Translations under genes and position numbers: made by a program
Part shown: in pieces, positions 7,534 to 48,445 of the stretch
Layout: every line of letters begins with the position of its first letter
Position numbering within the stretch: the first letter of the stretch is position 1
NCBI GenBank assembly: GCA_963723135.1
Contig: CAVRPN010000007.1
Coordinates: 1,229,373-1,293,372 of the forward strand
DNA: 64,000 bases
Direction: 5' to 3'
Source: an uncultured Acidobacteriaceae bacterium
GTDB taxonomy: Bacteria; Acidobacteriota; Terriglobia; Terriglobales; Acidobacteriaceae
The notes under the pieces: model-generated
Databases searched by the model: none
Told to the model about the DNA's origin: nothing
What the model saw: the letters and a program-made list of their open reading frames with translations, nothing else

Positions 7534-7637
7534 AGCAAGACTCCAACTCCAAGTTGCAGTAAGCGAGGGCTGGGATCCGGAAGCATATTCCGGGATACCC
7601 AGCCTTCGTATTTTGTGGGAACCTCTACCTGTACCGC

Positions 7638-28235: not shown

Positions 28236-28271
28236 AGCTTGCTGGCGTGGCTTGCTTTTGACCTCTCTGCG

Positions 28272-31352: not shown

Positions 31353-32579
31353 GTGGCTGGGGGCGCCAACCTCGCTTCGTGGATCACCACCCATCGCGTG
31401 CGCGTTCACGGGACGCTTCTCGCTCTGTGTCTCTGGTCTCTTTATTCGTGGAACATGGCGACGCCGGGCCTGCGCGATCGCGCCGGCAATCTGAAGGGGA
31501 CGGACTTCCAGCATCTCTACACCCTGGGCTCGCTCGCTCTCGCCCACCGGGGCGCCGATCTTTACAACATGCAGGCCCAGACTGTGCTCTCGGCCCAACG
31601 CGTGCCCGCGGCAGTGGGCATCCGCTACTTGCCTCTGTATCCTCCGCAAGTTTCGATTTTTCTTGCGCCTTTTGCTCAATTCTCCTATGGCGGGGCGCTG
31701 GTTTTATGGCTGGTTCTGAGTGCGGGAATTTATGCGTCATGCGTCTATGCGGTGTGGCGCGCCTGCCCTGCCTTGCGCAACGAGTTGCGCGCTGTCTGGA
31801 TTCTGGCCTTGGCGTTCCCTGCCTTCTGGCATCTCATTTTGTGGGGACAAACCTCCGCTCTCGCCCTGGCTGGTTTCACGCTGGGTTACTTAGCGCTGCG
31901 GAATGACCGTGGATTCCTCGCGGGACTGGCTTTCGGCTGCCTTATCTTCAAGCCGCAACTGGGCATTGCAGCCGCCGTAATTTTTCTGGCCACGGGAGGA
32001 TGGAAGGTAATCGCCGGCGGGCTGCTTTCCGCCGCGGCCCAACTCGCTGCCGCCTGGACATATTACGGCTCGGGCCCTCTGCGTGAATGGATCCTGGCGC
32101 TTTTCCGTTTGCCTGGCTTGTTCCCCCTGCTGGAGCCCAAGCCCTACCAGACCCACTGCCTGCGCTCCTTCTGGACCATGCTATTGCCGTGGCCACGGAT
32201 TGCCGCCGGGCCCTACATCGTCACGGTGCTGCTCGCTCTGGTGCTGGCCGCCCGTTGCTGGAACAGTCGCATTTCCCTGCCCTTGCGCTATTCTGCGCTT
32301 CTGCTGGCGACGGTCCTGGTTGCCCCGCACCTTACCGTCTACGATCTCGTCATCCTCGGACCGGCATTTCTGCTGCTTGCCGACTGGTGCATCGCGAACT
32401 TCGACGACTCCACAAGCCCGTCGCTCAAGATTCTTCTCTACGCCGCCTACGCGCTGCCCCTGGTCGGCCCGCTCGCCCGCTGGACCCACGTGCAACTCAC
32501 CGTTCCTGTCATGTTTCTGATCCTGTACCTGATATCGCAGATCGGGCGACGATCGGCCCACAGCGCAGCAACAGCGTGA
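31353..32579 (+). CDS. Glycosyltransferase family 87 / DUF2029-like membrane protein (second paralogue)
   Basis: GTG start 1 nt after the preceding stop. 408 aa, polytopic. The loop KGTDFQHLYTLGSLALAHRGADLYN fits the same motif. Confidence 0.55.
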   Translation: MAGGANLASWITTHRVRVHGTLLALCLWSLYSWNMATPGLRDRAGNLKGTDFQHLYTLGSLALAHRGADLYNMQAQTVLSAQRVPAAVGIRYLPLYPPQVSIFLAPFAQFSYGGALVLWLVLSAGIYASCVYAVWRACPALRNELRAVWILALAFPAFWHLILWGQTSALALAGFTLGYLALRNDRGFLAGLAFGCLIFKPQLGIAAAVIFLATGGWKVIAGGLLSAAAQLAAAWTYYGSGPLREWILALFRLPGLFPLLEPKPYQTHCLRSFWTMLLPWPRIAAGPYIVTVLLALVLAARCWNSRISLPLRYSALLLATVLVAPHLTVYDLVILGPAFLLLADWCIANFDDSTSPSLKILLYAAYALPLVGPLARWTHVQLTVPVMFLILYLISQIGRRSAHSAATA

Positions 32580-32587
32580 ATCCGGTC

Positions 32588-33454
32588 TTACTTTCCAAAT
32601 AGAAATTGCAACCCTTCGGGAAACCGGCCCGCCCAAGCTGCCTCGTTGTGTCCAGCACCCTCTTCGATCACGAGCCGCAGCCGCTTCTCGGTGAGCACGG
32701 CTCTCCGCAGAATCCCCGCCAACTCCCGGACATCATTCAACACCGCGCGGCTGCGTTCCGGGCTGCCGCCCTCCGCCGTTCCCGCAGCCAGAAACATCCG
32801 CTCCGGCCAGACTCTCACCGCGCGGCTGTCTTTAATCAACTGACGGTGCGACGCCCAGAGCGACGGACTCTCCAGCAGCAACCTTCCGATCGCTCCCGGC
32901 CGCACCATCGCGGTATACAGCGCAATCAACGCCCCTAGCGACGATCCGCCCAGGCCCGTGTTCTCCGCCCCCGCAGCCACGCGATAAGTGCGGGACACGA
33001 ACGGCATCACTTCCTTGATCAGGAAATCAGGATAGTGCCTGCCCTGCACCCGCATCATCATCGGATGCAGGGAGCGGTGTGGCATGTATTCGCGAATCCG
33101 GTCTTTCGCTGCATTGTCGATGCCGACCAGAATCATTCGGGCGATCGCGCCCTCGCGGATGAGACGGTCCGCAGTCTCGTCTGCCTGCCACTCGACTCCG
33201 GTGAAGGACGTCGCCGCCTCAAACAGATTCTGCCCGTCATTCAGGTAAAACACCGGATACCGCCGACCATCGTTCTCTCGGTCGTCGTATCCCGGCGGGA
33301 GCCAGACTCTGAGAAAGCGGGTGTTGCGAAAGATGCGGCTGCGAAATTCATGCAACCGCAGATCTCCGAGGGCGCCGGCGGCGCGGATCACCGCAGCGGC
33401 GGCCCCTGCAGGGACGGGCGATAGTCCTTCTTCTGTTTTCTGGATTTCTTCCAT
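32588..33454 (-). CDS. Esterase-family alpha/beta hydrolase (PF00756-like)
   Basis: RVWLPPGYDDRENDGRRYPVFYLNDGQNLF and the nucleophile elbow LGGSSLGAL. Confidence 0.75.
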   Translation of the reverse strand: MEEIQKTEEGLSPVPAGAAAAVIRAAGALGDLRLHEFRSRIFRNTRFLRVWLPPGYDDRENDGRRYPVFYLNDGQNLFEAATSFTGVEWQADETADRLIREGAIARMILVGIDNAAKDRIREYMPHRSLHPMMMRVQGRHYPDFLIKEVMPFVSRTYRVAAGAENTGLGGSSLGALIALYTAMVRPGAIGRLLLESPSLWASHRQLIKDSRAVRVWPERMFLAAGTAEGGSPERSRAVLNDVRELAGILRRAVLTEKRLRLVIEEGAGHNEAAWAGRFPEGLQFLFGK

Positions 33455-33482: not shown

Positions 33483-33971
33483 TCAGCCCGTTTCCGGTCG
33501 AAACCGAGCCGCAGCCGCCAGACCCGTGATCGTCGCGATCAAGCCCAAGGAGCCCAAACACAGAACACACCAGGTTCCTAGAACGTAAGCTTCGACATAG
33601 GTGAGGTAGAGCGCAAACGCCAAGCCGGCTGCGGCCACCACGAGCAGCCACGCCGGAGACTCTGCCAGCGAGCGGCAGCGCCACGACAACACCAGCAAAA
33701 CTCCGTATCCCACAACTCCGATCCCGGCAACCGGTATTCCCATCACGCTCGAATACTCGCTGCGGTTCACCACGTCGCAATCGAATTTCTCCCCCAGTTC
33801 GCAAAACGACGTCGCCGACTTCGCGTAATGCCGCTGCAGCGACAGACCGGACACAGCAATTCCAGCAGCGGCCAGAGCCGCAATTGCCACAAACAACATC
33901 CGGTGTAGCTTGTCAGGGATGGCTTTGGTCCTGTCGGGACGATTGTCCGCGGCATTGCTCACGGACTGCAT
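33483..33971 (-). CDS. Vitamin K epoxide reductase (VKOR) family membrane protein
   Basis: 162 aa with 4 TM segments. Loop cysteines are in FCELGEKFDCDVV and a CxxC in the last helix (GTWCVLCLGS). Confidence 0.8.
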   Translation of the reverse strand: MQSVSNAADNRPDRTKAIPDKLHRMLFVAIAALAAAGIAVSGLSLQRHYAKSATSFCELGEKFDCDVVNRSEYSSVMGIPVAGIGVVGYGVLLVLSWRCRSLAESPAWLLVVAAAGLAFALYLTYVEAYVLGTWCVLCLGSLGLIATITGLAAAARFRPETG

Positions 33972-34378
33972 CCAGTCCTGTCACTTAACTCTTGCGCCGA
34001 GAACACTCCCGGCGTCAGCGCAGCATCCGTAAATCGCCAGGTCGGAAATACCTTCACCCCCAGCGCTTTGCACTGTTCCGACTCCGCATGCGAACCAGGC
34101 ACGCCGCATTCCACATAGACGAAGCGGTAGGCCTTGCCGAGAATCTCTTTCTGATCCGCGCAATGCGGGCACCAGTACGCCCCGTACATTTTCACCTGGC
34201 GGGAAGCCATGCACTTTGCCAGCGAGTCGTAGCGATGATTCCTGTGATACCAGCCGGCTGCGTAGGCTGCCGCCAGCAGCACCAGGATCCCGGTCCCGAT
34301 CATGAACTTCCGCGAGCGCGGCTCGGCCTCGGCCGTTCCTGTCCGCCCCTGCTGCCGTTTGCGACGTTCCTCCGACAT
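33959..34378 (-). CDS. Membrane-anchored thioredoxin-fold protein (VKOR partner)
   Basis: 139 aa with an N-terminal TM anchor and a CPHC active site in MYGAYWCPHCADQKE. It overlaps the VKOR start by 13 nt. Confidence 0.7.
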   Translation of the reverse strand: MSEERRKRQQGRTGTAEAEPRSRKFMIGTGILVLLAAAYAAGWYHRNHRYDSLAKCMASRQVKMYGAYWCPHCADQKEILGKAYRFVYVECGVPGSHAESEQCKALGVKVFPTWRFTDAALTPGVFSAQELSDRTGCSP

Positions 34379-34432
34379 GCTTCATTTTTATATCATGCCC
34401 CATATTGCGACCAGTGGAAGTCCTCTCCGCTC

Positions 34433-35335
34433 TTACGCCACCACATTCAGCGAGCCGGGCAGAACATCCATCGCCTCACACTGCAGAGTAAGCACCTCGC
34501 CATCGACCATTACATCCACCGGCGCATCGAGGTTGAACTCCACGCGCCGCACTGCCTGCCGCTCCGCAAGAGGATGCTCGATGTGCGTCCCGTCGTAAAG
34601 CCCCGGCAAATTACGGATCAGCCCCAACCGCCCGATCGGTCCCCAGCGGACATATTCGATCAGGCCGCTGTTGATCTCAGCCTTGGGCGCAATCATCATG
34701 GTCCCGCCCGTGTACTTGCTGTTGTTGAAGCTGAGAAACAGGCACGGCCGCAGGTCAAATGCGACTTGCCCTTCCACGCGCACCGGAAACGGCCGCCGAT
34801 GGAATCGAGCCAGGGTGAGAAAGATCGAAACCACATACCCCAGCTCTCCCCAGCCACTGAAGCGGTGCGCCCGCAGCGTCGCCACGTCCGCTGCGAACCC
34901 CATGCTGAGAAGGTTAATCGAGTAGATCACTCCCTGGCGATGCCGCAGGCGCAACACGTCGCTGGGCTGGCTGCGCCCTGCAATCAGCGACTCGATGGCA
35001 TGCTCCACCCCGCGGTCACTGAAATCGCGCAGAAAGGAATTTCCCGTCCCGAGGGGTAAAAATGCCAGCGTCGGCCGTTCTCCGCCAGTTGCCTGGGGGA
35101 ATAGGCCGTTGACGATTTCGTAAGATGTTCCGTCCCCGCCGACGCCAATAAATCTCCGGACCCCGCGCGCATACGCGTCACGCGCCACCCTCGTGGCATC
35201 TCCGGGGGCCTGCGTCTCCACAACTTCAATCGTGACTCCACCTTGCCTCAGTCGTTCCAGGGCCGGAGCAAGCATCTTGCGGCTCCGCCCTCCGCCCGCC
35301 ACCGGATTCACTATGGCCAGATATGATTGCCTCAC
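34433..35335 (-). CDS. Diacylglycerol-kinase-family lipid kinase (YegS/BmrU-like)
   Basis: LAIVNPVAGGGRS...FIGVGGDGTSYEIVNGL...LPLGTGNSF are the DAGK catalytic-domain motifs. Confidence 0.85.
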   Translation of the reverse strand: MRQSYLAIVNPVAGGGRSRKMLAPALERLRQGGVTIEVVETQAPGDATRVARDAYARGVRRFIGVGGDGTSYEIVNGLFPQATGGERPTLAFLPLGTGNSFLRDFSDRGVEHAIESLIAGRSQPSDVLRLRHRQGVIYSINLLSMGFAADVATLRAHRFSGWGELGYVVSIFLTLARFHRRPFPVRVEGQVAFDLRPCLFLSFNNSKYTGGTMMIAPKAEINSGLIEYVRWGPIGRLGLIRNLPGLYDGTHIEHPLAERQAVRRVEFNLDAPVDVMVDGEVLTLQCEAMDVLPGSLNVVA

Positions 35336-35399
35336 GATGGTTGACCCAGGACAAAACCGATCCCCAAGCGCTTGTCATTCAGGGAAGAGAGACCACTGT

Positions 35400-37109
35400 T
35401 CACATCTCTACTACCGCACTCCGGTGCGCCGTCTTCCCAACGTCTTCCCCCAGTTCCTGCCGCTTGATCTTCATCGACGCCGTCCGGGGAAAATCCTTCT
35501 CCCACACCAGGTAGCCACCCACGCGCTTAAAATCCGGCAAGCGCCGGTTAAGCGTCGAAATCTCCTGCAGAAGTGCGCTATCGAACTGCTGATTCGGTTC
35601 CAGGCGCAGGACGATCACCAGTTTCTCCTGCCCCAACTCCTTGCGCGGCCACAGGTAGTTTGCGGCGAAAACACAATATTCTTTCACGGGCAGGCCATCG
35701 AAAACCGTCTCCACATCCTCGGGATAAATGTTCTTCCCGCCTTCGGTCACGATCATGTTCTTCTTACGTCCAAAAAGCTGCAAGTGTCCGTTGCCGTCAA
35801 ACCGGCCCAGATCGCCGGTCAGCAGCCAGCCCTCCACAATCGTCGCCAGCGTCAACTCCGGATCGTCCAGGTAATGCGACATCACCGTCTTGCTCTTGAC
35901 TGCCACTTCTCCGATTCCCTCGCCATCGGGATTCAGAATCCGCAGGTCGACTCCGGGCAGCGGTTTGCCGACGGTATCCGCGCGAAATGGTTTCAGGTCG
36001 TTTAGCGTCAACGCCGTCCCGGCTTCCGTCAGCCCATAACCATTTACCACCGGAATTCCCAGGTCATAGAAGAACTGCATCGTTGACGGCTCCAGAAACG
36101 CTCCGCCGGTGATCAGCGCCAGCAACTCGCCGCCAAATGCGCGATGCACCTGCGGCAGCAGAACGCGGCTCAATTTCACCTTCGGCCGGCTTCGCGTCAG
36201 CATCTTGTTGAGTGAGATCACCTGATTCAGGAACGCGCGTTTCCACGACGGCAACTCATCCAACTTCGCGCGCAGCCCGCGCTCCAGGTTCTTGACGATC
36301 ATCGGCACCAGCGATACATAGGTGATTCGATAGCGCACAAACGCATCGCGCACAAACTCCGGACGCAGCGTCCGCAAGTGCACCACGCACGCCCCGCACA
36401 CAAACGGCCCGATGAACCCCACCATGAAATCGATAGCATGGTTGGTCGGCAGAATGCTCAAATACCGCACCCCGGGCCAGAACGGATACCACGCCGTCAG
36501 TGCCCGGCATTGCTCCAGATAGTTTTCGTGGGTCAGCACGCAGCCTTTCGGCCGGCCGCCCGTTCCTGACGAATAGACGATGCAAGCCACGTCCTCGCGC
36601 TGCCGCATCACGAAGTCGGGAGCGCCCTTGCGTTTGAAGTCTTCCCATCGGAACCCGCCCGCCAGGTCGGCGCCCGCGGGAGCTTCCGTCACCAGCACCA
36701 GCTTCGTCTTGATGCTCTGAAACTCCGGCGACTGCATGATCGCCCGCCACAAGTGGTACTCGACTATCAGCATTTTGGGCTTAGAGTGCGCCAGCAGTTG
36801 CAGGTGTTCGGCGGCAGTGAGCTTGTAATCGAGCGGGACAAGAACTCCTCCACAATAAAAGATGGCGTACGCCGAGATCAGCCACTTCGACTGATTCGTC
36901 ATGATGATCGCCGCGCGGTCGCCGGCGTCGAAGTCCGCGTCCTCCAGGGCCCGCGCCAGGGGCGTCGTAATTTCCTTGAAATCGGAATAGGTGAGTCGCG
37001 TCTTCTCGCGCTCGCGGTCGGCTTCGATCAGGCAGGTTTCGCCGGCAAAGCGCTCCAGCGCATCGCGCAGGGCAGCGCCCAGACAGCTATATGTTCGGAG
37101 ATCGAGCAT
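35400..37109 (-). CDS. AMP-dependent synthetase/ligase (long-chain fatty acyl-CoA/ACP ligase-like)
   Basis: AMP-binding motif [14 protein letters not shown], plus GYGLTE and [28 protein letters not shown]. Confidence 0.85.
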
Positions 37110-37124
37110 CAGAGACTTATTTCA

Positions 37125-37261
37125 CCACAGAGACACGGAGACACGGAGAATAGCATGTTAATCAGTTCATTACCCGTTTGATGGAAGGGCAATCGACGGT
37201 CGCGACAGGGAAGGCTTTTCCAGGTCCTCTTTTTTCTCCGTGCCCCCGTCTTCCGCGGTGG
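37125..37261. repeat. Imperfect inverted repeat (CCAC..GACACGGAGAA family) forming a REP/MITE-like hairpin
   Basis: The left arm is CCACAGAGACACGGAGACACGGAGAA (37125-37150). The right arm is TTCTCCGTGCCCCCGTCTTCCGCGGTGG (37234-37261), whose reverse complement is CCACCGCGGAAGACGGGGGCACGGAGAA. It lies between the ACP and the ligase. Confidence 0.55.
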
Positions 37262-37268
37262 ATATCCG

Positions 37269-37511
37269 CTAGAGTCTGGCCTGAACCTTCTGTGCCAGCG
37301 TGCGGAAGTCGCTTACTCCCTGCAATTCATAATCCGGCAACTCGACGTGAAAATGATTCTCCAGCTTAGTCAGCAGGTCAAGCGTTTGCAGGCTGTCAAT
37401 GCCCAGCGTCTTGAAAAAGTCGTCGTCCGGCTGCAACTTCTCCCGCGGCACCTTGAAGTGTCCCGCCGCGAGGTCAAGAATCTCATCAAGTGTCTTCTCG
37501 GCAGTTTGCAT
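37269..37511 (-). CDS. Acyl carrier protein
   Basis: 80 aa with the phosphopantetheine attachment motif LGIDSLQTLDLL. Confidence 0.85.
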   Translation of the reverse strand: MQTAEKTLDEILDLAAGHFKVPREKLQPDDDFFKTLGIDSLQTLDLLTKLENHFHVELPDYELQGVSDFRTLAQKVQARL

Positions 37512-37615
37512 AGAGGTAACTCTAACCTAAGATTGTAATTCCCCACCGGGAGAAAGGCTTGGAAGGAATCCGCCCGGGCGGGGACTCGGCGCTCACTGCC
37601 CGCAACTCGGCGCTG

Positions 37616-38419
37616 CTAAGGCAAATACGGCTGCGCGTCCTTACTCTCCACAAACTTCTTCAGCCCCGCCTCCACCGCCGGCCGAGCGAATAATTCACAA
37701 AATAAGTCAATCTCGCGCTGCAGCTCTTCATGCGGAATCGGCTTGATGAACTTTTTTGCGGCAATCGCGGTCGCGCGGTCAAACTTCGCCAACTGTCTTG
37801 CCGCGACCCGGGCCGCGCGCAGAGCTTCGCCCTCTCCGACGACCTGGCTCACCAGCCCGATCTGCTGCGCTTTGCTCGCATTGAAGCTGCGCCCGGTCAA
37901 CAGCAAATCCCGGACTACCGCATTGCCCAAATCCCGTTTCAGGCGCGGTATCCCGCCGAACCCCGGAATCAATCCCAGCCTCAGCTCCGGAAAGCAAAAC
38001 CGCGCCATCTTGTCGGCAATAATCAAATCGCAAGCCAGAGCCAGCTCAAACCCACCCCCGAATGTGACTCCGTGCACGGCCGCAATCGTCGTCAGCGGAG
38101 CAGCATCAATCGCATTGAACACCCGGTGAATCCTCTCCAGAAAATCCCGCACTCCCTTGGCTGCGGCCGGCTTCTCCATCGCCTGCGAGCGTTCGTAAAG
38201 CTGCCGCAAATCCGCGCCCGCGCAAAACCCGGATTTGATTTCGCTGTAGATAATCAGCGCATGCGCTTCGCGCTGCAGCCCTTCCAGGGCCCTCGTGAAC
38301 TTCTCCAGATCCTCCAGCGAAATCGACCCAATTTCGTTGCAGGGCTCCCGATGCAGCGCCAACTCAATCACGCCGCCTTCCACCTGCCACGACATGGTTT
38401 GGTTGTGAGAGAGGCTCAT
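37616..38419 (-). CDS. Enoyl-CoA hydratase/isomerase (crotonase) family protein
   Basis: 267 aa. FCAGADL oxyanion-hole motif and GVTFGGGFELALACD. Its ATG overlaps the upstream stop (ATGA). Confidence 0.9.
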   Translation of the reverse strand: MSLSHNQTMSWQVEGGVIELALHREPCNEIGSISLEDLEKFTRALEGLQREAHALIIYSEIKSGFCAGADLRQLYERSQAMEKPAAAKGVRDFLERIHRVFNAIDAAPLTTIAAVHGVTFGGGFELALACDLIIADKMARFCFPELRLGLIPGFGGIPRLKRDLGNAVVRDLLLTGRSFNASKAQQIGLVSQVVGEGEALRAARVAARQLAKFDRATAIAAKKFIKPIPHEELQREIDLFCELFARPAVEAGLKKFVESKDAQPYLP

Positions 38420-40065
38420 GCCGTCTTCACCGACCGGTACATCTGGTCGATCTCATCCTTCATCCCGGCAGTGATCGTATCCCGCTTCAGCTTGCCGTTG
38501 ACCGTCAACATCCCATTCTCAATGGAAAACGCCTCCAGACGCACAACGAACATTCGCACCTGTTTGTAGTGCGGTAATTGCGGATTCACCGCGTCCAGCG
38601 CGGCCTGCGCCCGTTCCTGCGTCACATCCCCGGTCACGATCGCCGACAAATACCCGCGCCCATTTCCCACCACGACCACTTGCTGGGCCCCCGGCAGATT
38701 CTGCAGGATCGCATCCTCAATGGGCTCCGGGGCAATTTTGTGTCCCGAACCGAGGACAATCAAATTCTTGATCCGGCCCGCGATCCGCCAGTTCCCTGCC
38801 TCATTCACCTCGCCCTGGTCACCGGTGTGAAACCACCCGTCGCGCAGGGCCTCCGCCGTCTGCTGTGGCCGGTTCCAGTAGCCGGCAAATATGTTGGGAC
38901 CGCGCACCACAATCTCGTCACTTTCTCCCAGCTTCATCTCCATGCCGGGAATCGGCGGCCCGACCCGTCCAACCTCAACATGGTTGGGATCGTCCATGGT
39001 GCAGATCGCGGTGGTTTCGGTCAGCCCGTAGACTTGCAACACGCGAATCCCCAGCATCATGAACCAAAGCTGTGTTTCAGGGTTCAGCGAGGCCGAACCG
39101 CATATCAACCCCTTCAGATTATCGCCAATCATCTTTTTGCGAATCGTCGGAAATACCAGCGCCTTCGCCAGCCACAGCCACAGGCCATCGCCAGGCTTCG
39201 ACTGATTCTGCTGCCTGCGCGCCCAGGCACCTTTTGCCCGCGAGTAAACTGCCAGGGCTACCCCTCCGGTCTGCCAAAGTTGTTCATCCACCGCGCGCCG
39301 CATGCGCTCCAGCAACTGCGGCACGTTCAGAAAATAATCCGGGGCCACGGTCCGCATATCGCTCGCGATCCTGGTCAGGTCCATGTTGAGCGTGACCAGG
39401 CTCCGCCGCTTCAGAAACGTCAGCAGCGCAATCCACGATGCCGCAAACGTAAAGGGCAAATAATGGAAGACGCGATCCTGCCCGGCAGAAGCCGCCATCA
39501 ACTGACTCAAACGCTCCGCAGTCCGCTCCAGCATGAAGCCCACATTCGCCGCTGTCAAAACCACGCCCTTGGCCTCGCCCGAGGTCCCCGACGTGTAGAT
39601 GATGGTCACGGGTGAATCGATCCCCACCTGCACCCGGTCGAGCTGCACTCCCTCTACGCCGCGGAAAATCTCGTCAAACAAGAATTGCGGCGGGGCCTCC
39701 GTCCACCGTTGCGCGATCCCATCGCGCAGCGCCGCATCGCCGCAGCAAATGAGCGACGGCATGGAATCCTTCATCATCGCCACCAATTCTGCAGGAGCCT
39801 GCCGCGAGTAGAGCGGTACCACGATCAGCCCTTCGGCCATGATGGCCAAATCCATCGCCACCCAGCGAATGCTGTTGGCCGCCAGCAGCCCGCACCGCTC
39901 GCCCGGTTTCAGGCTCTTGGACGCGAGAAACGTGCGCGCCCGGCCAACCATCTCGAGCAACTCGCCGCCGGTCACACCCGTAACTGCGCCCTTGCGAATC
40001 TCGGCGAGAATCCGCGTGTCCGCAGCCGCTCTCAGTTGCGAGAAAATCTCGCCTACGAATGGCAT
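38416..40065 (-). CDS. AMP-dependent synthetase/ligase (long-chain acyl-CoA synthetase-like)
   Basis: IIYTSGTSGEAKGV, VYGLTET and GWFHTGDQGEVNEAGNWRIAGRIKNLIV. Confidence 0.85.
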   Translation of the reverse strand: MPFVGEIFSQLRAAADTRILAEIRKGAVTGVTGGELLEMVGRARTFLASKSLKPGERCGLLAANSIRWVAMDLAIMAEGLIVVPLYSRQAPAELVAMMKDSMPSLICCGDAALRDGIAQRWTEAPPQFLFDEIFRGVEGVQLDRVQVGIDSPVTIIYTSGTSGEAKGVVLTAANVGFMLERTAERLSQLMAASAGQDRVFHYLPFTFAASWIALLTFLKRRSLVTLNMDLTRIASDMRTVAPDYFLNVPQLLERMRRAVDEQLWQTGGVALAVYSRAKGAWARRQQNQSKPGDGLWLWLAKALVFPTIRKKMIGDNLKGLICGSASLNPETQLWFMMLGIRVLQVYGLTETTAICTMDDPNHVEVGRVGPPIPGMEMKLGESDEIVVRGPNIFAGYWNRPQQTAEALRDGWFHTGDQGEVNEAGNWRIAGRIKNLIVLGSGHKIAPEPIEDAILQNLPGAQQVVVVGNGRGYLSAIVTGDVTQERAQAALDAVNPQLPHYKQVRMFVVRLEAFSIENGMLTVNGKLKRDTITAGMKDEIDQMYRSVKTA

Positions 40066-40213
40066 GTTGGTCTTAGACGTCCGACTTCAAACGCCGGTGC
40101 TCTCTGGGAAACTCATCTCCGCATCCGCCGCTTCGGAGAGACTTCTGAAACTGTCCTCTCCGTGACCAGCCTGGCCTGAGCGAAGCCGAAGGGTGTTGGG
40201 TACCTTGACAGAC

Positions 40214-41619
<1,406 letters not shown>

Positions 41620-41623
<4 letters not shown>

Positions 41624-42753
41624 GCGGCTGATCCTCCCGCTGCCGCCGGCCAGCGCTGGTACTTGTATTCGAACTGATTCTCGCGGCTGAACTTCAGCAA
41701 GGGATAACAATATTCGGAAAACGCCACCGGCCTCTTGCCCAGCTCGGCCGTCACCCGGGTGTTGTCGAACACCGTATTCCACACCAGGTAGGGCATAAAC
41801 ACCTTCATCAGCGATGCGCCATATCCCACCGTCCCTTTGCGGCCGGAAAGAAAATTCACCGACCCGGCAAAGGGCCGCTCCACAAACGGAGCGAACACCG
41901 GAGCCCGCTTGCTCTGTGCCGCCGCCAGCCCCTTGGTGATCTCGCGAAACGTCTGCGATCCCACTCCCGACGAGAGGTGATAGGTGTCATACCGGGGATG
42001 GTCTTTCTGGTGCAAAGTCGAAATTGCATCGGCCACGAAATCCACATTCACGATGTCGATTTTGTCGGTCGACCGGAAGGGCAGCACCGGCAGCCCGGCA
42101 AGAAAAACAAAGGCTTTGACCATGTCGAACTGCGTGGTTTCCGCATAGCGGCTGTCCCCCAGCACAATGCTCGGCCGGAAGACCGTTTTCGGAGTCTCGG
42201 GCAGCAGCACCCGCATCATGTGCTCGCAGAATTTCTTGGTGCGCGCATAGGGATCGTAGTCCGAGCGCTCCCAGTCGATCGCCCGGTCCTCGGTCACAAC
42301 CTCGTTGTGGCGTTTGCCCGCGACCGCCACCGTGCTCACCTGGCTGAAGCGCCGCAGCCCGTGATAGTGCTCGGCATGCCGCGCCAGGGTCAGCACTTCC
42401 AGCGTCCCGCGCAGATTCACATTCAGGCAGCTCTTTTCCGACTTCCGGTTCAGCGACGCGGCGCAGTGGATCACCGAATCGGTGGTGTGCACCAGCCGGT
42501 CGTACTCGTCGCGCCCCAGCCCCAGCCCGGGCTGCGTCAGATCGCCACGGAAGACCCGCACCCGGGTCTGCAGATGCTCATAGAACTGGGGAAAATCCAG
42601 ATGCAGCTGCAGTGCCTGCCACAGCCGCTCTTCGGCCTCACGCGTGTCTCGCGCCCGTACCAGCACATTCAGCGCGGCGCCGTGATCGCGCAAAAGATTG
42701 GCCGCTACGTGTGCCCCAATGTAGCCCGTCGATCCCGTCAGAAAAATCGCCAT
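41620..42753 (-). CDS. SDR-type thioester/fatty-acyl reductase-like protein (NAD_binding_4)
   Basis: ATG 42753 gives [21 protein letters not shown] (Rossmann GxxGxxG). The catalytic YxxxK is in YARTKKFCE. Confidence 0.75.
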
Positions 42754-42867
42754 GCGCCGGTACCGCTCTTCCTGCCTGAAATCAGCATTACGACCTGGGT
42801 GGCACAGCCCTTCCGCGCTGCGAAAAACCCTCGCAATCAATTTCGGTCTTCCGCCCCTGAAGCAAAC

Positions 42868-45303
42868 TCACCACGTCCCCCCGTTCGTCCCCGTCCTCAC
42901 CGTCTCCCCGTTTCCCGCCAGATGCAGACTCCGCGGCGCCCGCGCCTCCAGCGGCCGGCCCTCAATCAGCGGATACGTCCAGCGCCGCAGCGCCGGAATG
43001 TGCACGTTGATCCAGTAGTCCCACCAGTCCAGCCACTGCGTCTTGTAGGCAAAATCTTCCCGCTCCTCTTCCACCAGCGCGTGCGACAGCTTCTCCACGT
43101 TGTCGGCCGCGAAATCGTGCTCATTCAGCAAAATGAAGGGCTCAAACAGCTCGATCAGCTTCTCCACCCGTTCCAGATTCCTCTCCGCCTTCACCAGCGG
43201 CGTCTTCTTCAGGGGCAGCGGCGACATGATCCGCTGAATCGACTTCACAATCGCCTTCTGCGCCGGCGCCGACATCCTCTGATACCGCGTCTTCGATACC
43301 GGAATGGCATCCAAGCGCAGCCGCAGCCACGACTCCAGCCCCTCCTGCGCCCGGTAGTGCCGGCGGTGGGCCAGCGACGTCAACTCAATCGACCGCCCCA
43401 TATCGCACGGATTGGTCACGGAGGTCGCCAGCTGGTACAGCGGTTCATGCCGCCGCTCCACAATCGCCCCCGCAATCAGCGTCATCCCGGCGCACACCGC
43501 ATCCACCGGAATAATATCCAGCCGCTTCCGCTCGTTCGATGGCAACTGCCGGAAATAGGTCCCCAGCAAGTACGACAGCGACGCCGAAGTATTGATGCCC
43601 TCATTCCAGCCCACAAACGGCTTGGCCACCGAGGTCTCTACAATCGCCGGCCGCACTACCGCAATCGGCAGCCCCGTACCGTGCTTCGCGATCAGCGACT
43701 CCGCCAGACTCTTGGTCAGCGTGTAGGTATTCGGCCAGCCCAGCTCTTTGGCCCGCCGGGTTCCAGCTTCCGTGAGATACGTCTTCAGCCAGCGCACCCG
43801 GTTCTTGCGAATCTGATTCTCCAGCGCCGCTCCCTGCAGACCCTTGGCCGCGTGCTCCCGGGCCAGCGCCTGCATCTTCAATCCGGCGCTCACCTCCGCG
43901 CTCTCCGCCTGCGCCTCCGCCTGCCGGATCAGTGCATGCAGCGCCTGCCACTCCCCTTCCGCGTCAAAATCCGGCAAGCCGCGCGGGTTGTAGTTCGCGC
44001 TCAGCTTCTCGACCACCCGGCCGTCACTTTCGCCCGCCACATAGCAGGTCGAAAGATGCAGCAGCCCGGCATGCTCGGTTCCCCGCACAAACTCCAGGAC
44101 GTTCACCGCCGCGTCCGTGTTGGTCGCCAGCGCATCCCGCAGGTCAGGATTAAAATCAGTTAACCCCGAGCTGTTCACCACCAGGTCCAAATCCCGTTGC
44201 AAACGCCGTGCCAAGTCCGCCCCCAGCCCCAGCCCTGCGTGCGTCACATCGCCTTCCACTACTTCCACCTTCGCCCGCAGAAAATCCGCCAGCCCCGCTC
44301 CATACTTTTCAAACAGCGGATCAAACACCGGCGACTCTTCCACCATCTTTTCCAGCCGCCGCTCGGCCGGATTCGACTTCTGCCGCCGGATCAGCAAGTA
44401 AATCCGCCCGATCTTCGGCAAGTCCATCAATAGATTCGCCAGCCACACCTTGCCGATAAATCCGGTTACGCCGATCAGCATGACATGCCGCCCCGCCAGC
44501 GCCCCCCGCACCGAGAATTCCGGCGCCTGTCTCGGCCCGCCGAAGCGCACCACGGGACGCTCCCCCACCGTGGCCGCAGCTCGTTCCGCCGGAACCGCCG
44601 CCGTCCGCAACTGTTCCCCCGAGATATCCAATAGCCGCGCCAACGTCTTCGGCGCCCGTCGCCCATCCGGCTGCGCGTCGCGAATTCTTGCGAACGCACC
44701 CCGCGGCCGAATCACCGGATCCAGCAGCCTTCCCGTCGCCGTGCCATCGCGAAACTCCAGCCGGTTGGCCACCACCCGCCGCGCCCCCAGATGTCGTGCC
44801 AGCGGCTTCATCACATGGTCCAGGCCCTGGCTCACCAGCGCCACGTCTGCGCCGGCGCGGACCAGTTCCTGCACCTTCTCGACGCCTCGCGCCTTCAATC
44901 GCGGCTTCAGTTTGTATTGGAAATATTCCTCTCCCAGCAGATCCAGCCGGTCGCGCGTCACCCCGCGCAGCGCGGTATGCACCACTCGCGTGGCAAACTT
45001 GCGGTTGGTCGAGTACAGGAATGGCCGTAGCACCGCCATGAGGAAGATCAATCCGCGCCGCCGGAAGCGCTCGGTGAAGGTCTGCGCGTTCCAGGTGAAG
45101 AACGCCACCGGTTCGACCACGGTCAGGTCGAGCAGACTGCCCTCCACCCGCCAGTACACGCTGGGGGACGCGCCGCTGGAATTGTGGTTTCCCTGTTCCA
45201 AGATGTGTTCGCCCGGCTGGAACCACCCGGTTACCGGGCGGGCGAATCTCCTATTGTAAACAATGCTTGCAAGTCCATGCGAAGAAAGGAGCAAACCCGG
45301 CAA
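42868..45303 (-). CDS. Fusion protein: degenerate HAD-IB-like domain + fatty acyl-CoA reductase (NAD_binding_4 + FAR C-terminal domain)
   Basis: The central part has MLIGVTGFIGKVWLANLL (Rossmann), YxxxK in NTYTLTKSLAE, and a long FAR-type C-terminal domain. The N-terminal ~230 aa resemble HAD-IB (…VALVSQGLDHVMKPLARHLGARRVVANRLEFRDGTATGRL). The exact start is uncertain. Confidence 0.7.
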   Translation of the reverse strand: MPGLLLSSHGLASIVYNRRFARPVTGWFQPGEHILEQGNHNSSGASPSVYWRVEGSLLDLTVVEPVAFFTWNAQTFTERFRRRGLIFLMAVLRPFLYSTNRKFATRVVHTALRGVTRDRLDLLGEEYFQYKLKPRLKARGVEKVQELVRAGADVALVSQGLDHVMKPLARHLGARRVVANRLEFRDGTATGRLLDPVIRPRGAFARIRDAQPDGRRAPKTLARLLDISGEQLRTAAVPAERAAATVGERPVVRFGGPRQAPEFSVRGALAGRHVMLIGVTGFIGKVWLANLLMDLPKIGRIYLLIRRQKSNPAERRLEKMVEESPVFDPLFEKYGAGLADFLRAKVEVVEGDVTHAGLGLGADLARRLQRDLDLVVNSSGLTDFNPDLRDALATNTDAAVNVLEFVRGTEHAGLLHLSTCYVAGESDGRVVEKLSANYNPRGLPDFDAEGEWQALHALIRQAEAQAESAEVSAGLKMQALAREHAAKGLQGAALENQIRKNRVRWLKTYLTEAGTRRAKELGWPNTYTLTKSLAESLIAKHGTGLPIAVVRPAIVETSVAKPFVGWNEGINTSASLSYLLGTYFRQLPSNERKRLDIIPVDAVCAGMTLIAGAIVERRHEPLYQLATSVTNPCDMGRSIELTSLAHRRHYRAQEGLESWLRLRLDAIPVSKTRYQRMSAPAQKAIVKSIQRIMSPLPLKKTPLVKAERNLERVEKLIELFEPFILLNEHDFAADNVEKLSHALVEEEREDFAYKTQWLDWWDYWINVHIPALRRWTYPLIEGRPLEARAPRSLHLAGNGETVRTGTNGGTW

Positions 45304-45516: not shown

Positions 45517-46542
45517 CTATTTCTTTCCATACGTCTTACTGAATTCATTCCTGGCATTCACCACGGAAAACGATCCATCCGCCGACGCCGTCACCTTGAT
45601 GTAGTTTCCCGCGCACTCCTCCTCCACATTTGCAATCCGCTCCTCCGCGACGTTGTGCTCCTTGCCGCCTTCCATCGCGTAGTGTAGCTGCCACAAATCC
45701 TCCAGCCCCGGTGAGCCGTGCACGATCTGCCAGGCCGCCGGACTGCCTCCCTTGCGCGCGCCATTGTTCATGATCGCCACGCGCGGATGCAGCGCCCACA
45801 CCATAGCCTTCGCATTCGACTCATCCAGCCCGTGATGCGTGGTCAGATATAAGTCCACTGTCCCGATCAAGTTGTTTGGGCAAGCCAGCTCCAGCTCCTT
45901 TTTCTTCGTGAGATCCCCCAGATCGAGGAAGCGGAACCTCCCATACGTGATCAAGACGCCCAGCGAGCGTGCATTCTCGCTCGCATCCGCAGGCGCCTCC
46001 GGTTCCGCCGCGCAATAGGGATTCGCTTCACCCGCCCCCGGCAGCGGGTCCGCAATCAACTCTCCCGCTGCAGTCAGCGCCTGCACCGTGATCCCCCGCA
46101 TCGGCAATCCCTCGTCCGGTTTCAGGACGAGGCGCGCATGCCCTGCAATCGCCTTCTGGTAAGCCGCGTAGTCTTCGCGCGTGACGTCGGAATCTTCCAT
46201 ATTCGGCCCGTGATCCGCGAATGTTCCGATCTTGATCCGCGCCGCCAGTTGCGGCACTCCGCCCACGTGATCGCGGTGGTAGTGGGTAATCAGTACAAAA
46301 TCGAGCCGTTTCACCCGCGCATCGTGAGCCGCGGCCGCGATGCGGCCGGCATCGCGTCCATCAAACCCCGGCCATCCGGTATCGATCAGCAGCGACTGGC
46401 CGGACGGGCTCACCACCAGCGTCGCCTGCCCGCCCTCTACATCAATGAAATAAATCTGCAGCGGCTTCCCCGCCCGCCCCGCCGCCGTGCAAAGGCCCAT
46501 TGCCATCCACAAGAAGACTCCCACACCCAGCAATCGACGCAT
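45517..46542 (-). CDS. Secreted MBL-fold metallo-hydrolase
   Basis: ATG 46542 (GAGGAG upstream) gives the signal peptide MRRLLGVGVFLWMAMGLCTAAG. The HxHxDH motif is in LITHYHRDHVGG. Confidence 0.8.
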   Translation of the reverse strand: MRRLLGVGVFLWMAMGLCTAAGRAGKPLQIYFIDVEGGQATLVVSPSGQSLLIDTGWPGFDGRDAGRIAAAAHDARVKRLDFVLITHYHRDHVGGVPQLAARIKIGTFADHGPNMEDSDVTREDYAAYQKAIAGHARLVLKPDEGLPMRGITVQALTAAGELIADPLPGAGEANPYCAAEPEAPADASENARSLGVLITYGRFRFLDLGDLTKKKELELACPNNLIGTVDLYLTTHHGLDESNAKAMVWALHPRVAIMNNGARKGGSPAAWQIVHGSPGLEDLWQLHYAMEGGKEHNVAEERIANVEEECAGNYIKVTASADGSFSVVNARNEFSKTYGKK

Positions 46543-46636
46543 GTTCGGACTCCTCGCTGCACCCGATGATAATGCCTGTGCCCTCAGACCGTGGCACGTA
46601 GGATAAGATAATGGCTCTATTTCCCCGAGGCCAATC

Positions 46637-47353
46637 ATGCGGAGCATCCCGCTCGTCGCCTTACTTCTTGTCTGCTGCACCGCCAGCGCCCAACTTGACG
46701 ACGTTCTCAAGAAAGCCGGAGACGCTCTCAATCAGCGCGACACTTCCGGCCTCAGCAATGACAAAATTGTCTCCGGCCTCAAGCAAGCCCTCCAGGTCAG
46801 CACCGGCAAGGCCGTCGCTCTCACCGGCCGGCCCGACGGATTCCTCAAGAACGAGGCCATCAAGATTCTCGTGCCGCCGAAACTTGAAACCCTGGCCAGG
46901 GGAATGCGCATGCTGGGAATGGGCGCGCAAGTCGACGAACTGGAAGTTGGCATGAACCGCGCCGCCGAGCAGGCCACCCCTCAGGCTAAACTCATTTTTC
47001 TGTCTGCGCTAAAAAAGATGACCTTTGACGACGCCCGCCGCGTCCTCACCGGCGGCGATACTGCTGCCACCGAGTATTTCAAACGCACCAGCTCTGCCGA
47101 CCTCACCACCGCATTTTCTCCCATCGTGCATCGCTCCATGCTGCAGGTTGGAGTCGTTCAACAGTACGATCGCGTCCTCAAGAGTGCGCCCGGCGGCTCC
47201 GCACTCGCCGGCGAGTTCGACCTCGACAAATACGTCGTGGGCAAGACTCTCGATGGCCTTTTCTACACGCTGGGACAGGAAGAAAAGAAGATTCGCCAGA
47301 ACCCGGCCGCGCAGACTACAGCTTTACTGAAGGAAGTCTTTGGCAGGAAATAG
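46637..47353 (+). CDS. DUF4197-like secreted protein
   Basis: 238 aa with a signal peptide. LSNDKIVSGLKQALQVSTGKAV...FLKNEAIKILVPPKL resembles the DUF4197 family. Confidence 0.65.
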   Translation: MRSIPLVALLLVCCTASAQLDDVLKKAGDALNQRDTSGLSNDKIVSGLKQALQVSTGKAVALTGRPDGFLKNEAIKILVPPKLETLARGMRMLGMGAQVDELEVGMNRAAEQATPQAKLIFLSALKKMTFDDARRVLTGGDTAATEYFKRTSSADLTTAFSPIVHRSMLQVGVVQQYDRVLKSAPGGSALAGEFDLDKYVVGKTLDGLFYTLGQEEKKIRQNPAAQTTALLKEVFGRK

Positions 47354-47425: not shown

Positions 47426-48445
47426 CTACTTCGCGTTGATCACTCCGAAATAGCCATCGGTGTCGCTCGGCCCGGCGGTGAAGAACAATTGGTTCTTCTG
47501 TCCGTTCGAACTCGACCCGCCCCCGAACTCGATTCCCCACAGCCCGTTGATGGTGATGTTCTTGCCCATCGCGTTCTGGATGGGCCCAATCAGTTTCCCC
47601 GTCGTCAGGTTGTAGCCGTTGATGGTCCCTTTGCTCGTGTTGTTCGAGATCAGCAACGCGCTGCTCAGCGTCCCGAAGTTCGCTGGAGCCAGCGCGAATC
47701 CCCAGGGCTGGTTCAGGGGCGCACCATGGGTAAAGTGCTTCGATAGAACCCCCGCTTCGGTAAAGATGTCGATGTACCCGCCCGCGCCGCCGGATGTGCT
47801 GGCGAACGAAACATACACCTTGCCTGCGATGTCCTGAATTCCAAAAGGCGCAAAGCCCGCTGGAATGCTTGGGTCGGTGAACGACTTCACCAGGTTGAAG
47901 CTCCCGTCGTAAACATCCACCTTGTTATTGGCGGAATCCGCGGCGAACAGGAAATTCCCCGAGGGCTTGCTGGTGATGGCCAGGCCGGTATACACCGCTC
48001 CCGGGCTTTTCACGGCGATCAGCGCCGCCGTCGGGCTGAATGACGACCACCCGCTGATAGTTCCATCCAGGGTAGCGAACAAAAATGCCGAAACCCAGGT
48101 ATCAATCTTGAACTCCTGCGAACCGTTGTAGACAATTCCTGTCGGCGAACCCGCTCCCTTGCCGCTGGCGGAAGGAATGACCACCTGCAAGCTCTGTGGA
48201 TTTCCTTTGCCATCGTAAAGCGTCGACCAGCCGTCCGCTTCATCACTCACCCAGAACGGCGCATTCGGACTATATGCCACTCCCCACGCATTCTTGAGCA
48301 GCGGATCTGTATGTTTCGCCTTGCCGGTCAGATCAGAAGTAAGGTTCGTCATTTGATATTGTGCCAGGGCCGTGCTGGAAACAAATCCCACCAGCAGGGC
48401 CAGGAAAGCAGTCAGAGCGAGAGTGCGACCAAGCAAACGCTGCAT
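47426..48445 (-). CDS. Secreted beta-propeller-like protein (resembles TIGR03118 family)
   Basis: 339 aa with a signal peptide. MTNLTSDLTGKAKHTDPLLKNAWGVAYSPNAPFWVSDEADGWSTLYDG is as in TIGR03118-type proteins. The family call is from memory. Confidence 0.55.
   Translation of the reverse strand: MQRLLGRTLALTAFLALLVGFVSSTALAQYQMTNLTSDLTGKAKHTDPLLKNAWGVAYSPNAPFWVSDEADGWSTLYDGKGNPQSLQVVIPSASGKGAGSPTGIVYNGSQEFKIDTWVSAFLFATLDGTISGWSSFSPTAALIAVKSPGAVYTGLAITSKPSGNFLFAADSANNKVDVYDGSFNLVKSFTDPSIPAGFAPFGIQDIAGKVYVSFASTSGGAGGYIDIFTEAGVLSKHFTHGAPLNQPWGFALAPANFGTLSSALLISNNTSKGTINGYNLTTGKLIGPIQNAMGKNITINGLWGIEFGGGSSSNGQKNQLFFTAGPSDTDGYFGVINAK

Follow-up and report, generated by a model that had tools for sequence, protein, structure and literature searches.

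A stretch of 64,000 nucleotides from an uncultured Acidobacteriaceae bacterium (assembly GCA_963723135.1, contig CAVRPN010000007.1, positions 1,229,373 to 1,293,372; hereafter the window) carries between positions 34433 and 45303 a block of eight minus-strand genes, in which a gene for a pyruvyl-transferase-like protein stands among genes for fatty-acyl reductases and ligases. We found that this block is one operon, the gene order of which is kept in at least three bacterial phyla and which has no described function. As proposed in an initial annotation made from the letters of the sequence, the eight genes behave as a single operon dedicated to lipids, with no chain building. It is quite possible that the operon makes the precursor of an ether-type glycerolipid, with phosphoenolpyruvate (PEP) and a pre-formed fatty acid as the starting materials and without glycerol-3-phosphate, dihydroxyacetone phosphate (DHAP), or AGPS.

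An eight-gene operon kept across phyla

Each of the eight co-directional open reading frames (ORFs) of the initial annotation was found where it had been placed, and profile searches assigned the same Pfam and NCBIfam domains; all the motifs it had quoted are there too, including GVTGFIGK, YTLTK, YARTK, and GIDSL. In the order of transcription, the block encodes a fusion of a HAD-like domain to a fatty-acyl reductase (HAD::FAR; 42868-45303; Pfam NAD_binding_4 1.1e-50, HAD 1.1e-11, and Sterile 2.3e-09); a stand-alone thioester reductase with a short-chain dehydrogenase/reductase (SDR) fold (41620-42840; NAD_binding_4 2.3e-44); a pyruvyl-transferase-like GT-B protein of 469 residues (40214-41623; PS_pyruv_trans, PF04230); the FadD11-like adenylate-forming ligase 1 (38416-40065; AMP-binding 4.2e-52 and AMP-binding_C_3 1.1e-09); a crotonase-fold enoyl-thioester hydratase (37616-38419; ECH_1 1.6e-42, 146 bits); an acyl carrier protein (ACP) of 80 residues with the serine of its GIDSL motif (37269-37511; PP-binding 4.6e-12); adenylate-forming ligase 2, of the long-chain fatty-acid ligase type (35400-37109; AMP-binding 1.2e-66); and a lipid kinase of the YegS/BmrU/Rv2252 family (34433-35335; DAGK_cat 8e-27 and YegS_C 3.6e-24). 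The genes for thioester reductase, transferase, ligase 1, and crotonase lie side by side and are coupled in translation. Both ATGA start/stop overlaps that had been pointed out can be read in the sequence, the stop of the thioester reductase overlapping the start of the transferase at 41620-41623 and the stop of ligase 1 that of the crotonase at 38416-38419. Equally in line with the initial annotation, no ketosynthase, acyltransferase, or thioesterase domain is encoded within the 34433-45303 span.

In a GTDB scan with one genome per species, at least 595 genomes carry a relative of the transferase. Synteny was determined for 59 Terriglobales loci, from species-level genomes with full 10-kb flanks. 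Conservation of gene order in related genomes was the first refutation test that the initial annotation had set for its proposal, and the outcome is clear: all eight genes are colinear and on one strand in 54 of the 59 Terriglobales genomes, and the order is kept in other phyla. Junctions are tighter in the relatives than in the window, with genes that overlap or lie less than 90 bp apart. Median amino acid identity to the window in the 59-genome comparison is 88% for the transferase and the ACP (78–92% for the latter among the relatives), 86% for ligase 2, 85% for the thioester reductase, 81% for the crotonase and the FAR, 78% for the kinase, and 75% for ligase 1. The transferase is thus the best-conserved enzyme of the block, tied by the 80-residue ACP alone.

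Elsewhere, the order HAD, FAR, reductase, transferase, ligase 1, crotonase, ACP, ligase 2, and kinase recurs at 41–57% identity in metagenome-assembled genomes (MAGs) of Myxococcota (L085) and Bdellovibrionota (L086), in a contig of Nannocystaceae (L088), and in an unplaced lineage (L087), and at 60–72% identity in a second acidobacterial clade (L094). The HAD-like protein of Myxococcota is encoded by a separate gene (226 residues) and is not fused to the FAR. A gene for a PlsC-type acyltransferase (PF01553) directly follows that of the kinase in L086, L088, and L094. In 3 of the 59 Terriglobales genomes, L008, L010, and L055 (~14100 onward), the operon breaks cleanly after the ACP gene, just upstream of ligase 2, which suggests a module boundary between the genes from FAR to ACP and the ligase 2–kinase pair. 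What follows the ACP gene in L008 is a sodium:solute symporter, a BadF/BcrA-type ATPase, and a glutamate dehydrogenase. A tblastn search against plasmids gave no match. This conservation far exceeds what the initial annotation could know, and the central idea of the latter, unproven as it is, has been strengthened and made specific.

A pyruvyl-transferase-like protein in lipid gene contexts

The transferase, which is 100% identical to a protein of a Candidatus Sulfotelmatobacter MAG at NCBI, belongs to the PF04230 superfamily by its score of 31.9 bits (cut-off 25.3), and distant members of its subfamily reach 47–58 bits. On the CsaB model TIGR03609, it scores 57.5 bits (E = 1.3e-15), far under the equivalog cut-off of 213.1. 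When aligned to Escherichia coli WcaK using hhalign (probability 91.4%, E = 9e-7, 298 columns), its residues R176, D196 (in GTDTAW), R346-x-H348, and R368 pair with the R, D, RxH, and K of WcaK. Mutagenesis of CsaB has shown that R148, R306, H308, and K328 bind PEP, and the H-to-K/R spacing of 20 residues is the same in both proteins (PMC10435577). In 35–50 homologs, these PEP-site residues are either invariant or conserved to 90% or more. The AlphaFold2 (AF2) model (pLDDT 92.7) has a GT-B fold, with ~100 extra residues relative to CsaB-type proteins, including N- and C-terminal helices. A phmmer search of 1.84 billion cluster representatives reached 861 clusters (50% identity), 247 of them at E ≤ 1e-30, and most members of the subfamily are full-length proteins of ~470–490 residues. 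Since few clusters were reached and most members are full-length, the transferase represents a distinct subfamily.

Two natural fusions were found. A 1014-residue protein from a Pseudobacteriovorax MAG (P0274) is a FAR::transferase (NAD_binding_4, Sterile, and PS_pyruv_trans), and its gene is followed by those for crotonase, ACP, and a ligase 2-like protein (context L090). A 967-residue protein (P0181) is a transferase::ligase 1 (PS_pyruv_trans, AMP-binding, and AMP-binding_C_3), the ligase half being ligase 1-like by BLAST; in its context (L091) there follow a thioester reductase, a membrane protein, an SDR, and a ligase::reductase. Together, the two fusions support an order in which the FAR is followed by the transferase and then by ligase 1 (and then the reductase). 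The membrane protein of L091 (4534-5256) is polytopic, with 240 residues and no Pfam match, and the ligase::reductase (6197-9478) is a 1093-residue protein with AMP-binding, DIP2-like, and NAD_binding_4 domains in place of ligase 2, ACP, and FAR.

Another reading would make the product a fatty alcohol, a wax ester, or another neutral or secondary lipid, or else a lipid-anchored pyruvylated glycan, with the kinase and the transferase acting on unrelated substrates. Polysaccharides appear in the Pfam name of the transferase, the fatty alcohols of wax esters in other bacteria come from FARs of this type, and in Terriglobales a PF00756 esterase gene is a conserved downstream neighbor. This reading is very improbable, since no version of the operon contains a wax synthase/DGAT or a glycosyltransferase, since the second ligase, the crotonase, the second reductase, and the lipid kinase would be superfluous, and since the esterase, together with a thioredoxin-like/VKOR pair that accompanies it, is absent from the Myxococcota and Bdellovibrionota versions. 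None of the 13 transferase contexts examined contains glycosyltransferase, flippase (Wzx/Wzy), or polysaccharide genes, and the protein falls outside the class of CsaB/polysaccharide ketal-pyruvyl transferases both by equivalog score and by gene context. Sphingolipid, polyketide or fatty-acid synthase, and wax-ester readings were likewise rejected, with Spt, ketosynthase, and wax synthase in no operon version.

Cultured carriers of homologs are Schlesneria paludicola, Endozoicomonas atrinae, and Chromobacterium subtsugae, where the gene stands alone or in other lipid contexts, outside this operon. Some other homologs stand alone too, and that of an Amycolatopsis sp. was seen as a protein only. 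In C. subtsugae (CP143257, 1-11434; L095), the homolog (~36% identity) closes a Pfa-type PUFA/secondary-lipid synthase cluster, which comprises KS-AT-ACP-KR and KS-CLF-FabA proteins (KS, ketosynthase; AT, acyltransferase; KR, ketoreductase; CLF, chain-length factor), an NMO enoyl reductase, a thioesterase, and a phosphopantetheinyl transferase (PPTase). This is a second, independent tie of the subfamily to fatty-chain biosynthesis, in an organism that is cultured and tractable. The planctomycete homolog in S. paludicola (JH636435, 7313-14652; L092; 51% identity) stands alone, with a PEP carboxylase immediately downstream and, upstream, a divergently transcribed gene for an alkyl sulfatase, which as an enzyme frees fatty alcohols; this is suggestive but anecdotal.

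Taken together, the PEP-site residues and the lipid-type contexts and fusions point to a PEP-using member of the family with a lipid acceptor. The transferase is thus predicted to use PEP, and its acceptor would be a lipid, most likely the product of the FAR.

A possible PEP-dependent route to ether lipids

The other enzymes of the block show features that bear on their activity. The FAR has NAD_binding_4 (172.7 bits) and Sterile (37.7 bits, cut-off 35.4) domains with the GVTGFIGK and YTLTK motifs, and it is assigned to the FAR class, with alcohol formation from acyl-CoA or acyl-ACP as its predicted activity. The thioester reductase, in which YARTK is present, scores 130.3 bits on TIGR01746, under the cut-off of 213.35, and its best solved relative is the reductase domain of MxaA (4u7w), followed by the R domains of carboxylic acid reductase (CAR) and Mycobacterium tuberculosis Nrp. 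The reductase domains of MxaA and Nrp are alcohol-forming four-electron reductases. In the crotonase, the catalytic glutamates (GGGFELAL and FPE(L/M)RLG) are invariant in seven orthologs from three phyla and the CAGADL oxyanion motif is kept; since both catalytic glutamates are retained, this crotonase is a hydratase. The kinase passes the cut-off of TIGR00147 (122.3 against 118.65 bits), and both DAGK_cat and YegS_C were found in it. The sequences of the two ligases single out no particular substrate for either. As for the HAD::FAR fusion of the initial annotation, its HAD, NAD_binding_4, and Sterile domains were all recovered, but the HAD domain is without the catalytic DxD. Its motif I is R-x-E in every ortholog aligned, Myxococcota included (WRVEG, FRAEG, or VRIEG), which makes it a pseudo-phosphatase, and the idea of a phosphatase opposing the kinase was rejected because the nucleophile is gone. 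Pfam domains of AGPS (FAD-linked oxidase) and of PlsA/Ger (BcrAD_BadFG activator and dehydratase) are present neither in the eight proteins nor in the flanks (30002-54045).

The route that we favor would run in seven steps. First, a ligase, with or without the ACP, would activate a fatty acid, and the FAR would convert it to a fatty alcohol. Second, the transferase would join this alcohol to C2 of PEP with release of phosphate, forming the ether bond of an enolpyruvyl alkyl ether (2-alkoxyacrylate). Third, a ligase would turn the new carboxylate into a CoA or ACP thioester, and fourth, the crotonase would hydrate the activated C=C to a 2-alkoxy-3-hydroxypropanoyl thioester. This would be reduced to 2-O-alkylglycerol by the stand-alone thioester reductase, using four electrons, and then phosphorylated by the YegS-type kinase. 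Finally, in lineages that carry PlsC, the free primary hydroxyl would be acylated to give a 1-acyl-2-alkyl analog of phosphatidic acid. We infer every substrate and product of this scheme, the assignment of the ligases to their steps, and the position of the ether.

This scheme uses each part of the operon once, and the enolpyruvyl ether is the only enoyl substrate that the operon itself can generate for its hydratase. The contiguous reductase, transferase, ligase 1, and crotonase genes would be the enolpyruvyl-to-glyceryl set, an arrangement that fits the scheme, and the succession of kinase and PlsC corresponds to a conversion from monoradylglycerol to lysophosphatidic acid to phosphatidic acid. 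Bacterial lipids of the 2-O-monoalkyl glycerol ether type, acylated at sn-1, have been documented (PMC5552659). More tentatively, we suggest that the operon might be a new, oxygen-tolerant, and PEP-dependent ether-lipid route leading to sn-2 alkyl glycerophospholipids, with the glycerol built on the lipid. The initial annotation had imagined a fatty alcohol coupled to a C3 unit and then phosphorylated; this gains comparative support from the fusions, the PEP site, and the presence of PlsC after the kinase, the chemistry of the product being inferred only.

Several points weigh against a PEP-built ether lipid. To our knowledge, neither the use of a simple alcohol nor a reaction ending with the enolpyruvyl product has been described for a characterized enzyme of the pyruvyl-transferase family, and we know of no precedent for the hydration of an alpha-alkoxyacrylyl thioester by a crotonase. 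The scheme leaves the role of the conserved pseudo-HAD domain unexplained, and the route is costly, at PEP plus at least 3 ATP and 4 NAD(P)H per ether. The 50 best Foldseek matches of the transferase model are UGTs, OGT, and UDP-GlcNAc 2-epimerases (TM 0.4–0.55), with Pvg1p (5ax7) not among them, and a profile search of Protein Data Bank (PDB) sequences gave noise only; solved structures were discarded as a clue to the acceptor, these matches being generic GT-B. The other versions of the operon are not all complete, with no called ACP gene in L087, a transposase and then the contig end after the ligase 2-like gene of L090, and a KR-type SDR and a membrane protein instead of the crotonase in L091. 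The acidobacterial carriers found are all uncultured MAGs, including the best 80 of at least 595 GTDB matches (Terriglobales), and a search for a cultured carrier of the operon, seeded from the second acidobacterial clade, returned MAGs only.

Known PF04230 members form cyclic ketals on sugars, and if this chemistry were retained, as in 4,6-O-pyruvyl sugars (PMC10435577), the product would instead be a pyruvate-ketal lipid. In such a pathway, the crotonase would give a 3-hydroxyacyl thioester that the FAR would reduce to an alkane-1,3-diol, on which the transferase would form a six-membered ketal; ligase 1 and the thioester reductase would then reduce the ketal carboxylate, and the kinase would phosphorylate the result. 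The minimal L090 set (FAR::transferase, ECH, ACP, and ligase 2) would suffice for this, and the replacement of the crotonase by a KR-type SDR in L091 is consistent with it, since enzymes of either type can deliver a 3-hydroxyacyl thioester. What makes a ketal lipid quite improbable is that no version of the operon has an acyl-CoA/ACP dehydrogenase or a ketosynthase, so that the 2-enoyl or 3-oxo substrate would need an outside source, and that the finished lipid would offer PlsC, found after the kinase in three lineages, no free hydroxyl to acylate. Moreover, we know of no such dioxane-carboxylate lipid.

Going by published domain descriptions, the closest described system appears to be Myxococcus xanthus elbABCDE (MIBiG BGC0000871), in which ElbB is HAD-like, ElbD has a FAR-ACS-ACP-AGPAT architecture (ACS, acyl-CoA synthetase; AGPAT, an acyltransferase type), ElbA and ElbE belong to the NAD-epimerase family, and ElbC is of unknown function (PMC9131029, PMC13012113). 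The two systems share a HAD-like protein beside a FAR, an acyl-CoA synthetase, an ACP, and NAD-epimerase-family proteins, and both would use pre-formed fatty acids without a ketosynthase. The AGPAT-type acyltransferase of ElbD has its counterpart in the separate terminal gene of L086, L088, and L094. In contrast, the proteins of the window are separate except for HAD::FAR, whereas ElbD is a single FAR-ACS-ACP-AGPAT polypeptide, and four components of the window's operon have no entry in the published elb lists: the pyruvyl-transferase-like enzyme, the crotonase, the second ligase, and the YegS-type kinase. The resemblance to ElbD seen in the initial annotation holds, with elb pairing a HAD-like protein with FAR-ACS-ACP-AGPAT (PMC9131029), but the missing acyltransferase that it had counted as a difference is a trait of the window's lineage and not of the system. 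We rate the operon as a probable variant related to elb-type, ketosynthase-free clusters for fatty alcohols or ether lipids.

It might be argued further that the operon is a disassembled Elb-type pathway, in which a fatty aldehyde or alcohol enters an ether synthesis that is of ElbD type or encoded elsewhere, the transferase, the crotonase, and the second ligase being accessory enzymes for modification of the head group or the chain. The domain inventory does overlap that of the M. xanthus elb operon (PMC9131029, PMC13012113), other lineages have PlsC as the last gene of the operon, and ElbB plus ElbD are the conserved core of elb-like clusters, a core of HAD-like protein and FAR that is fused in the window (bioRxiv 10.64898/2026.06.23.733905). 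We nevertheless consider this unlikely. An accessory enzyme would not be expected to be the best conserved of the block and to occur elsewhere as a fusion with the FAR or with ligase 1, as the transferase does, and descriptions of elb name no pyruvyl transferase, crotonase, or lipid kinase. Since the mechanism by which ElbD forms an ether is itself unknown (PMC9131029), a disassembled pathway would also explain less.

Like the ketal-pyruvyl transferases CsaB, WcaK, and Pvg1p (PF04230), the transferase of the window has the R, GxDTAW, R-x-H, and K/R residues of the PEP site (PMC10435577), and its modeled fold is GT-B-like with two domains. It differs from them in lying in an operon, or being fused, with fatty-acyl reductases and ligases, away from polysaccharide genes, and in its proposed acceptor, a fatty alcohol, and proposed product, an enol ether and not a ketal. 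In the FAR/GNPAT/AGPS pathway (animals; MXAN_1676-1674), the FAR alcohol likewise gives the alkyl chain and the ether oxygen, and acylation completes the phosphatidic acid analog, but the block is without AGPS and GNPAT, and the C3 unit would come from PEP rather than DHAP, with the ether at sn-2 rather than sn-1. PlsA/PlsR and Ger lead to the same class of products, bacterial alkyl glycerol ethers, including sn-2 (PMC13274423), but they are oxygen-sensitive and act on finished ester lipids, and none is encoded in the block; most aerobic Acidobacteria are without them (PMC13159169). The likeness to MurA and EPSP synthase is one of proposed chemistry (a hydroxyl joined to C2 of PEP with loss of phosphate), fold and family being unrelated. 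Full-text literature searches gave no paper tying a pyruvyl transferase to ether lipids or describing this gene combination.

Most aerobic Acidobacteria are without Mss and Ger, and it has been concluded that an alternative ether pathway must operate in them (PMC13159169). The branched glycerol dialkyl glycerol tetraether (GDGT) lipids of peat and soil, whose producers are poorly constrained, underpin widely used paleotemperature and pH proxies (PMC13274423). At ~10 kb, the operon is a concrete candidate that can be cloned, and the chemistry predicted for it is stepwise and falsifiable. It belongs to the peat-dominant Candidatus Sulfotelmatobacter-type lineage, where hundreds of genomes at species level conserve it. 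If the prediction is true, ether formation would have a fourth mechanism, in addition to those of AGPS, PlsA/Ger, and the archaeal prenyl transferases, and it would be carried by dominant uncultured peat Acidobacteriota plus Myxococcota and Bdellovibrionota. It would bring a new class of ether-forming enzyme and a new origin for the lipid glycerol backbone, and within the "polysaccharide pyruvyl transferase" family a large orphan branch would be re-annotated as lipid enzymes. If the prediction is wrong, the operon remains a deeply conserved multi-phylum lipid pathway without an assigned product.

Gene starts, intergenic gaps, and neighboring genes

The coordinates of HAD::FAR are those of the maximal ORF, and its true start is probably between 45201 and 45150. 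For the thioester reductase, the likely start is the ATG at 42753 and not the TTG at 42840, which gives a protein of 377 residues, the version of the relatives having 376.

Three gaps of ~150 bp containing repetitive extragenic palindromic (REP) elements had been described within the block. The gaps exist (148, 104, and 159 bp), but their REP label is not established, since there is a single imperfect repeat and the associated motif is weakly enriched. Only the ACP–ligase 2 gap has a clear imperfect inverted repeat, which is based on a tandem CACGGAGA and has arms of 15–16 nt at 37127-37150 and 37234-37249, 83 nt apart; position 40157-40164 is also listed with this observation. The window holds 7 copies of CACGGAGA against 2.7 expected, a number reached in 2 of 100 shuffles. 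The ACP–ligase 2 gap is ~20 bp in the relatives against 159 bp in the window, which therefore seems to have gained a small insertion. Scans for consensus promoters and terminators gave matches at or below shuffled expectation, and an Rfam scan of 32–55 kb gave no match.

On the upstream side, a metallo-beta-lactamase-fold protein is encoded at 45517-46731, as it is upstream of the operon in 23 of the 59 relatives. The initial annotation had also drawn attention to a Tes-type gene ~6.5 kb away. The gene is there at that distance (51817-54045, minus strand), and it encodes a 742-residue radical SAM protein with an HMPTM-type zinc ribbon and a low-complexity C-terminal tail of ~150 residues. It scores 314.9 bits on NF045702, for which the cut-off is 450, with TrsS as the second-best model, and may be regarded as a candidate bacterial Tes homolog. 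The synteny link did not hold, since only 1 of 59 genomes has this gene within 10 kb, and the linkage was rejected as a functional clue. Between the operon and the Tes-like gene lie genes for a TIGR03118 (PEP-CTERM-associated) family protein (47426-48445, minus strand) and a 979-residue Ser/Thr kinase with TPR repeats (48750-51689, minus strand).

Downstream of the kinase gene, the ORF at 33981-34403 was rejected as a ninth gene, the conserved frame being 33959-34378 (minus strand). This frame encodes a 139-residue thioredoxin-like protein with a WCPHC motif, one membrane helix, and no Pfam match, and it overlaps at its end with the beginning of a VKOR gene (33483-33971, minus strand), with which it looks like a disulfide-forming pair of the DsbA/DsbB type. 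The pair follows the operon in 55 of the 59 Terriglobales genomes and is absent in other phyla. A PF00756 putative esterase (32588-33454, minus strand), from a family that includes the Ag85 mycolyltransferases, is downstream of the operon in 54 of the 59 relatives. Since these downstream genes are conserved within Terriglobales alone, they probably have a separate function. Farther on, two tandem genes on the plus strand (30002-31351 and 31353-32579), preceded by a 576-residue ORF without a Pfam match (28239-29969), converge on the operon region. They encode membrane glycosyltransferases of the GT87 family, that of the mycobacterial polyprenol-phosphate-mannose-dependent mannosyltransferases.

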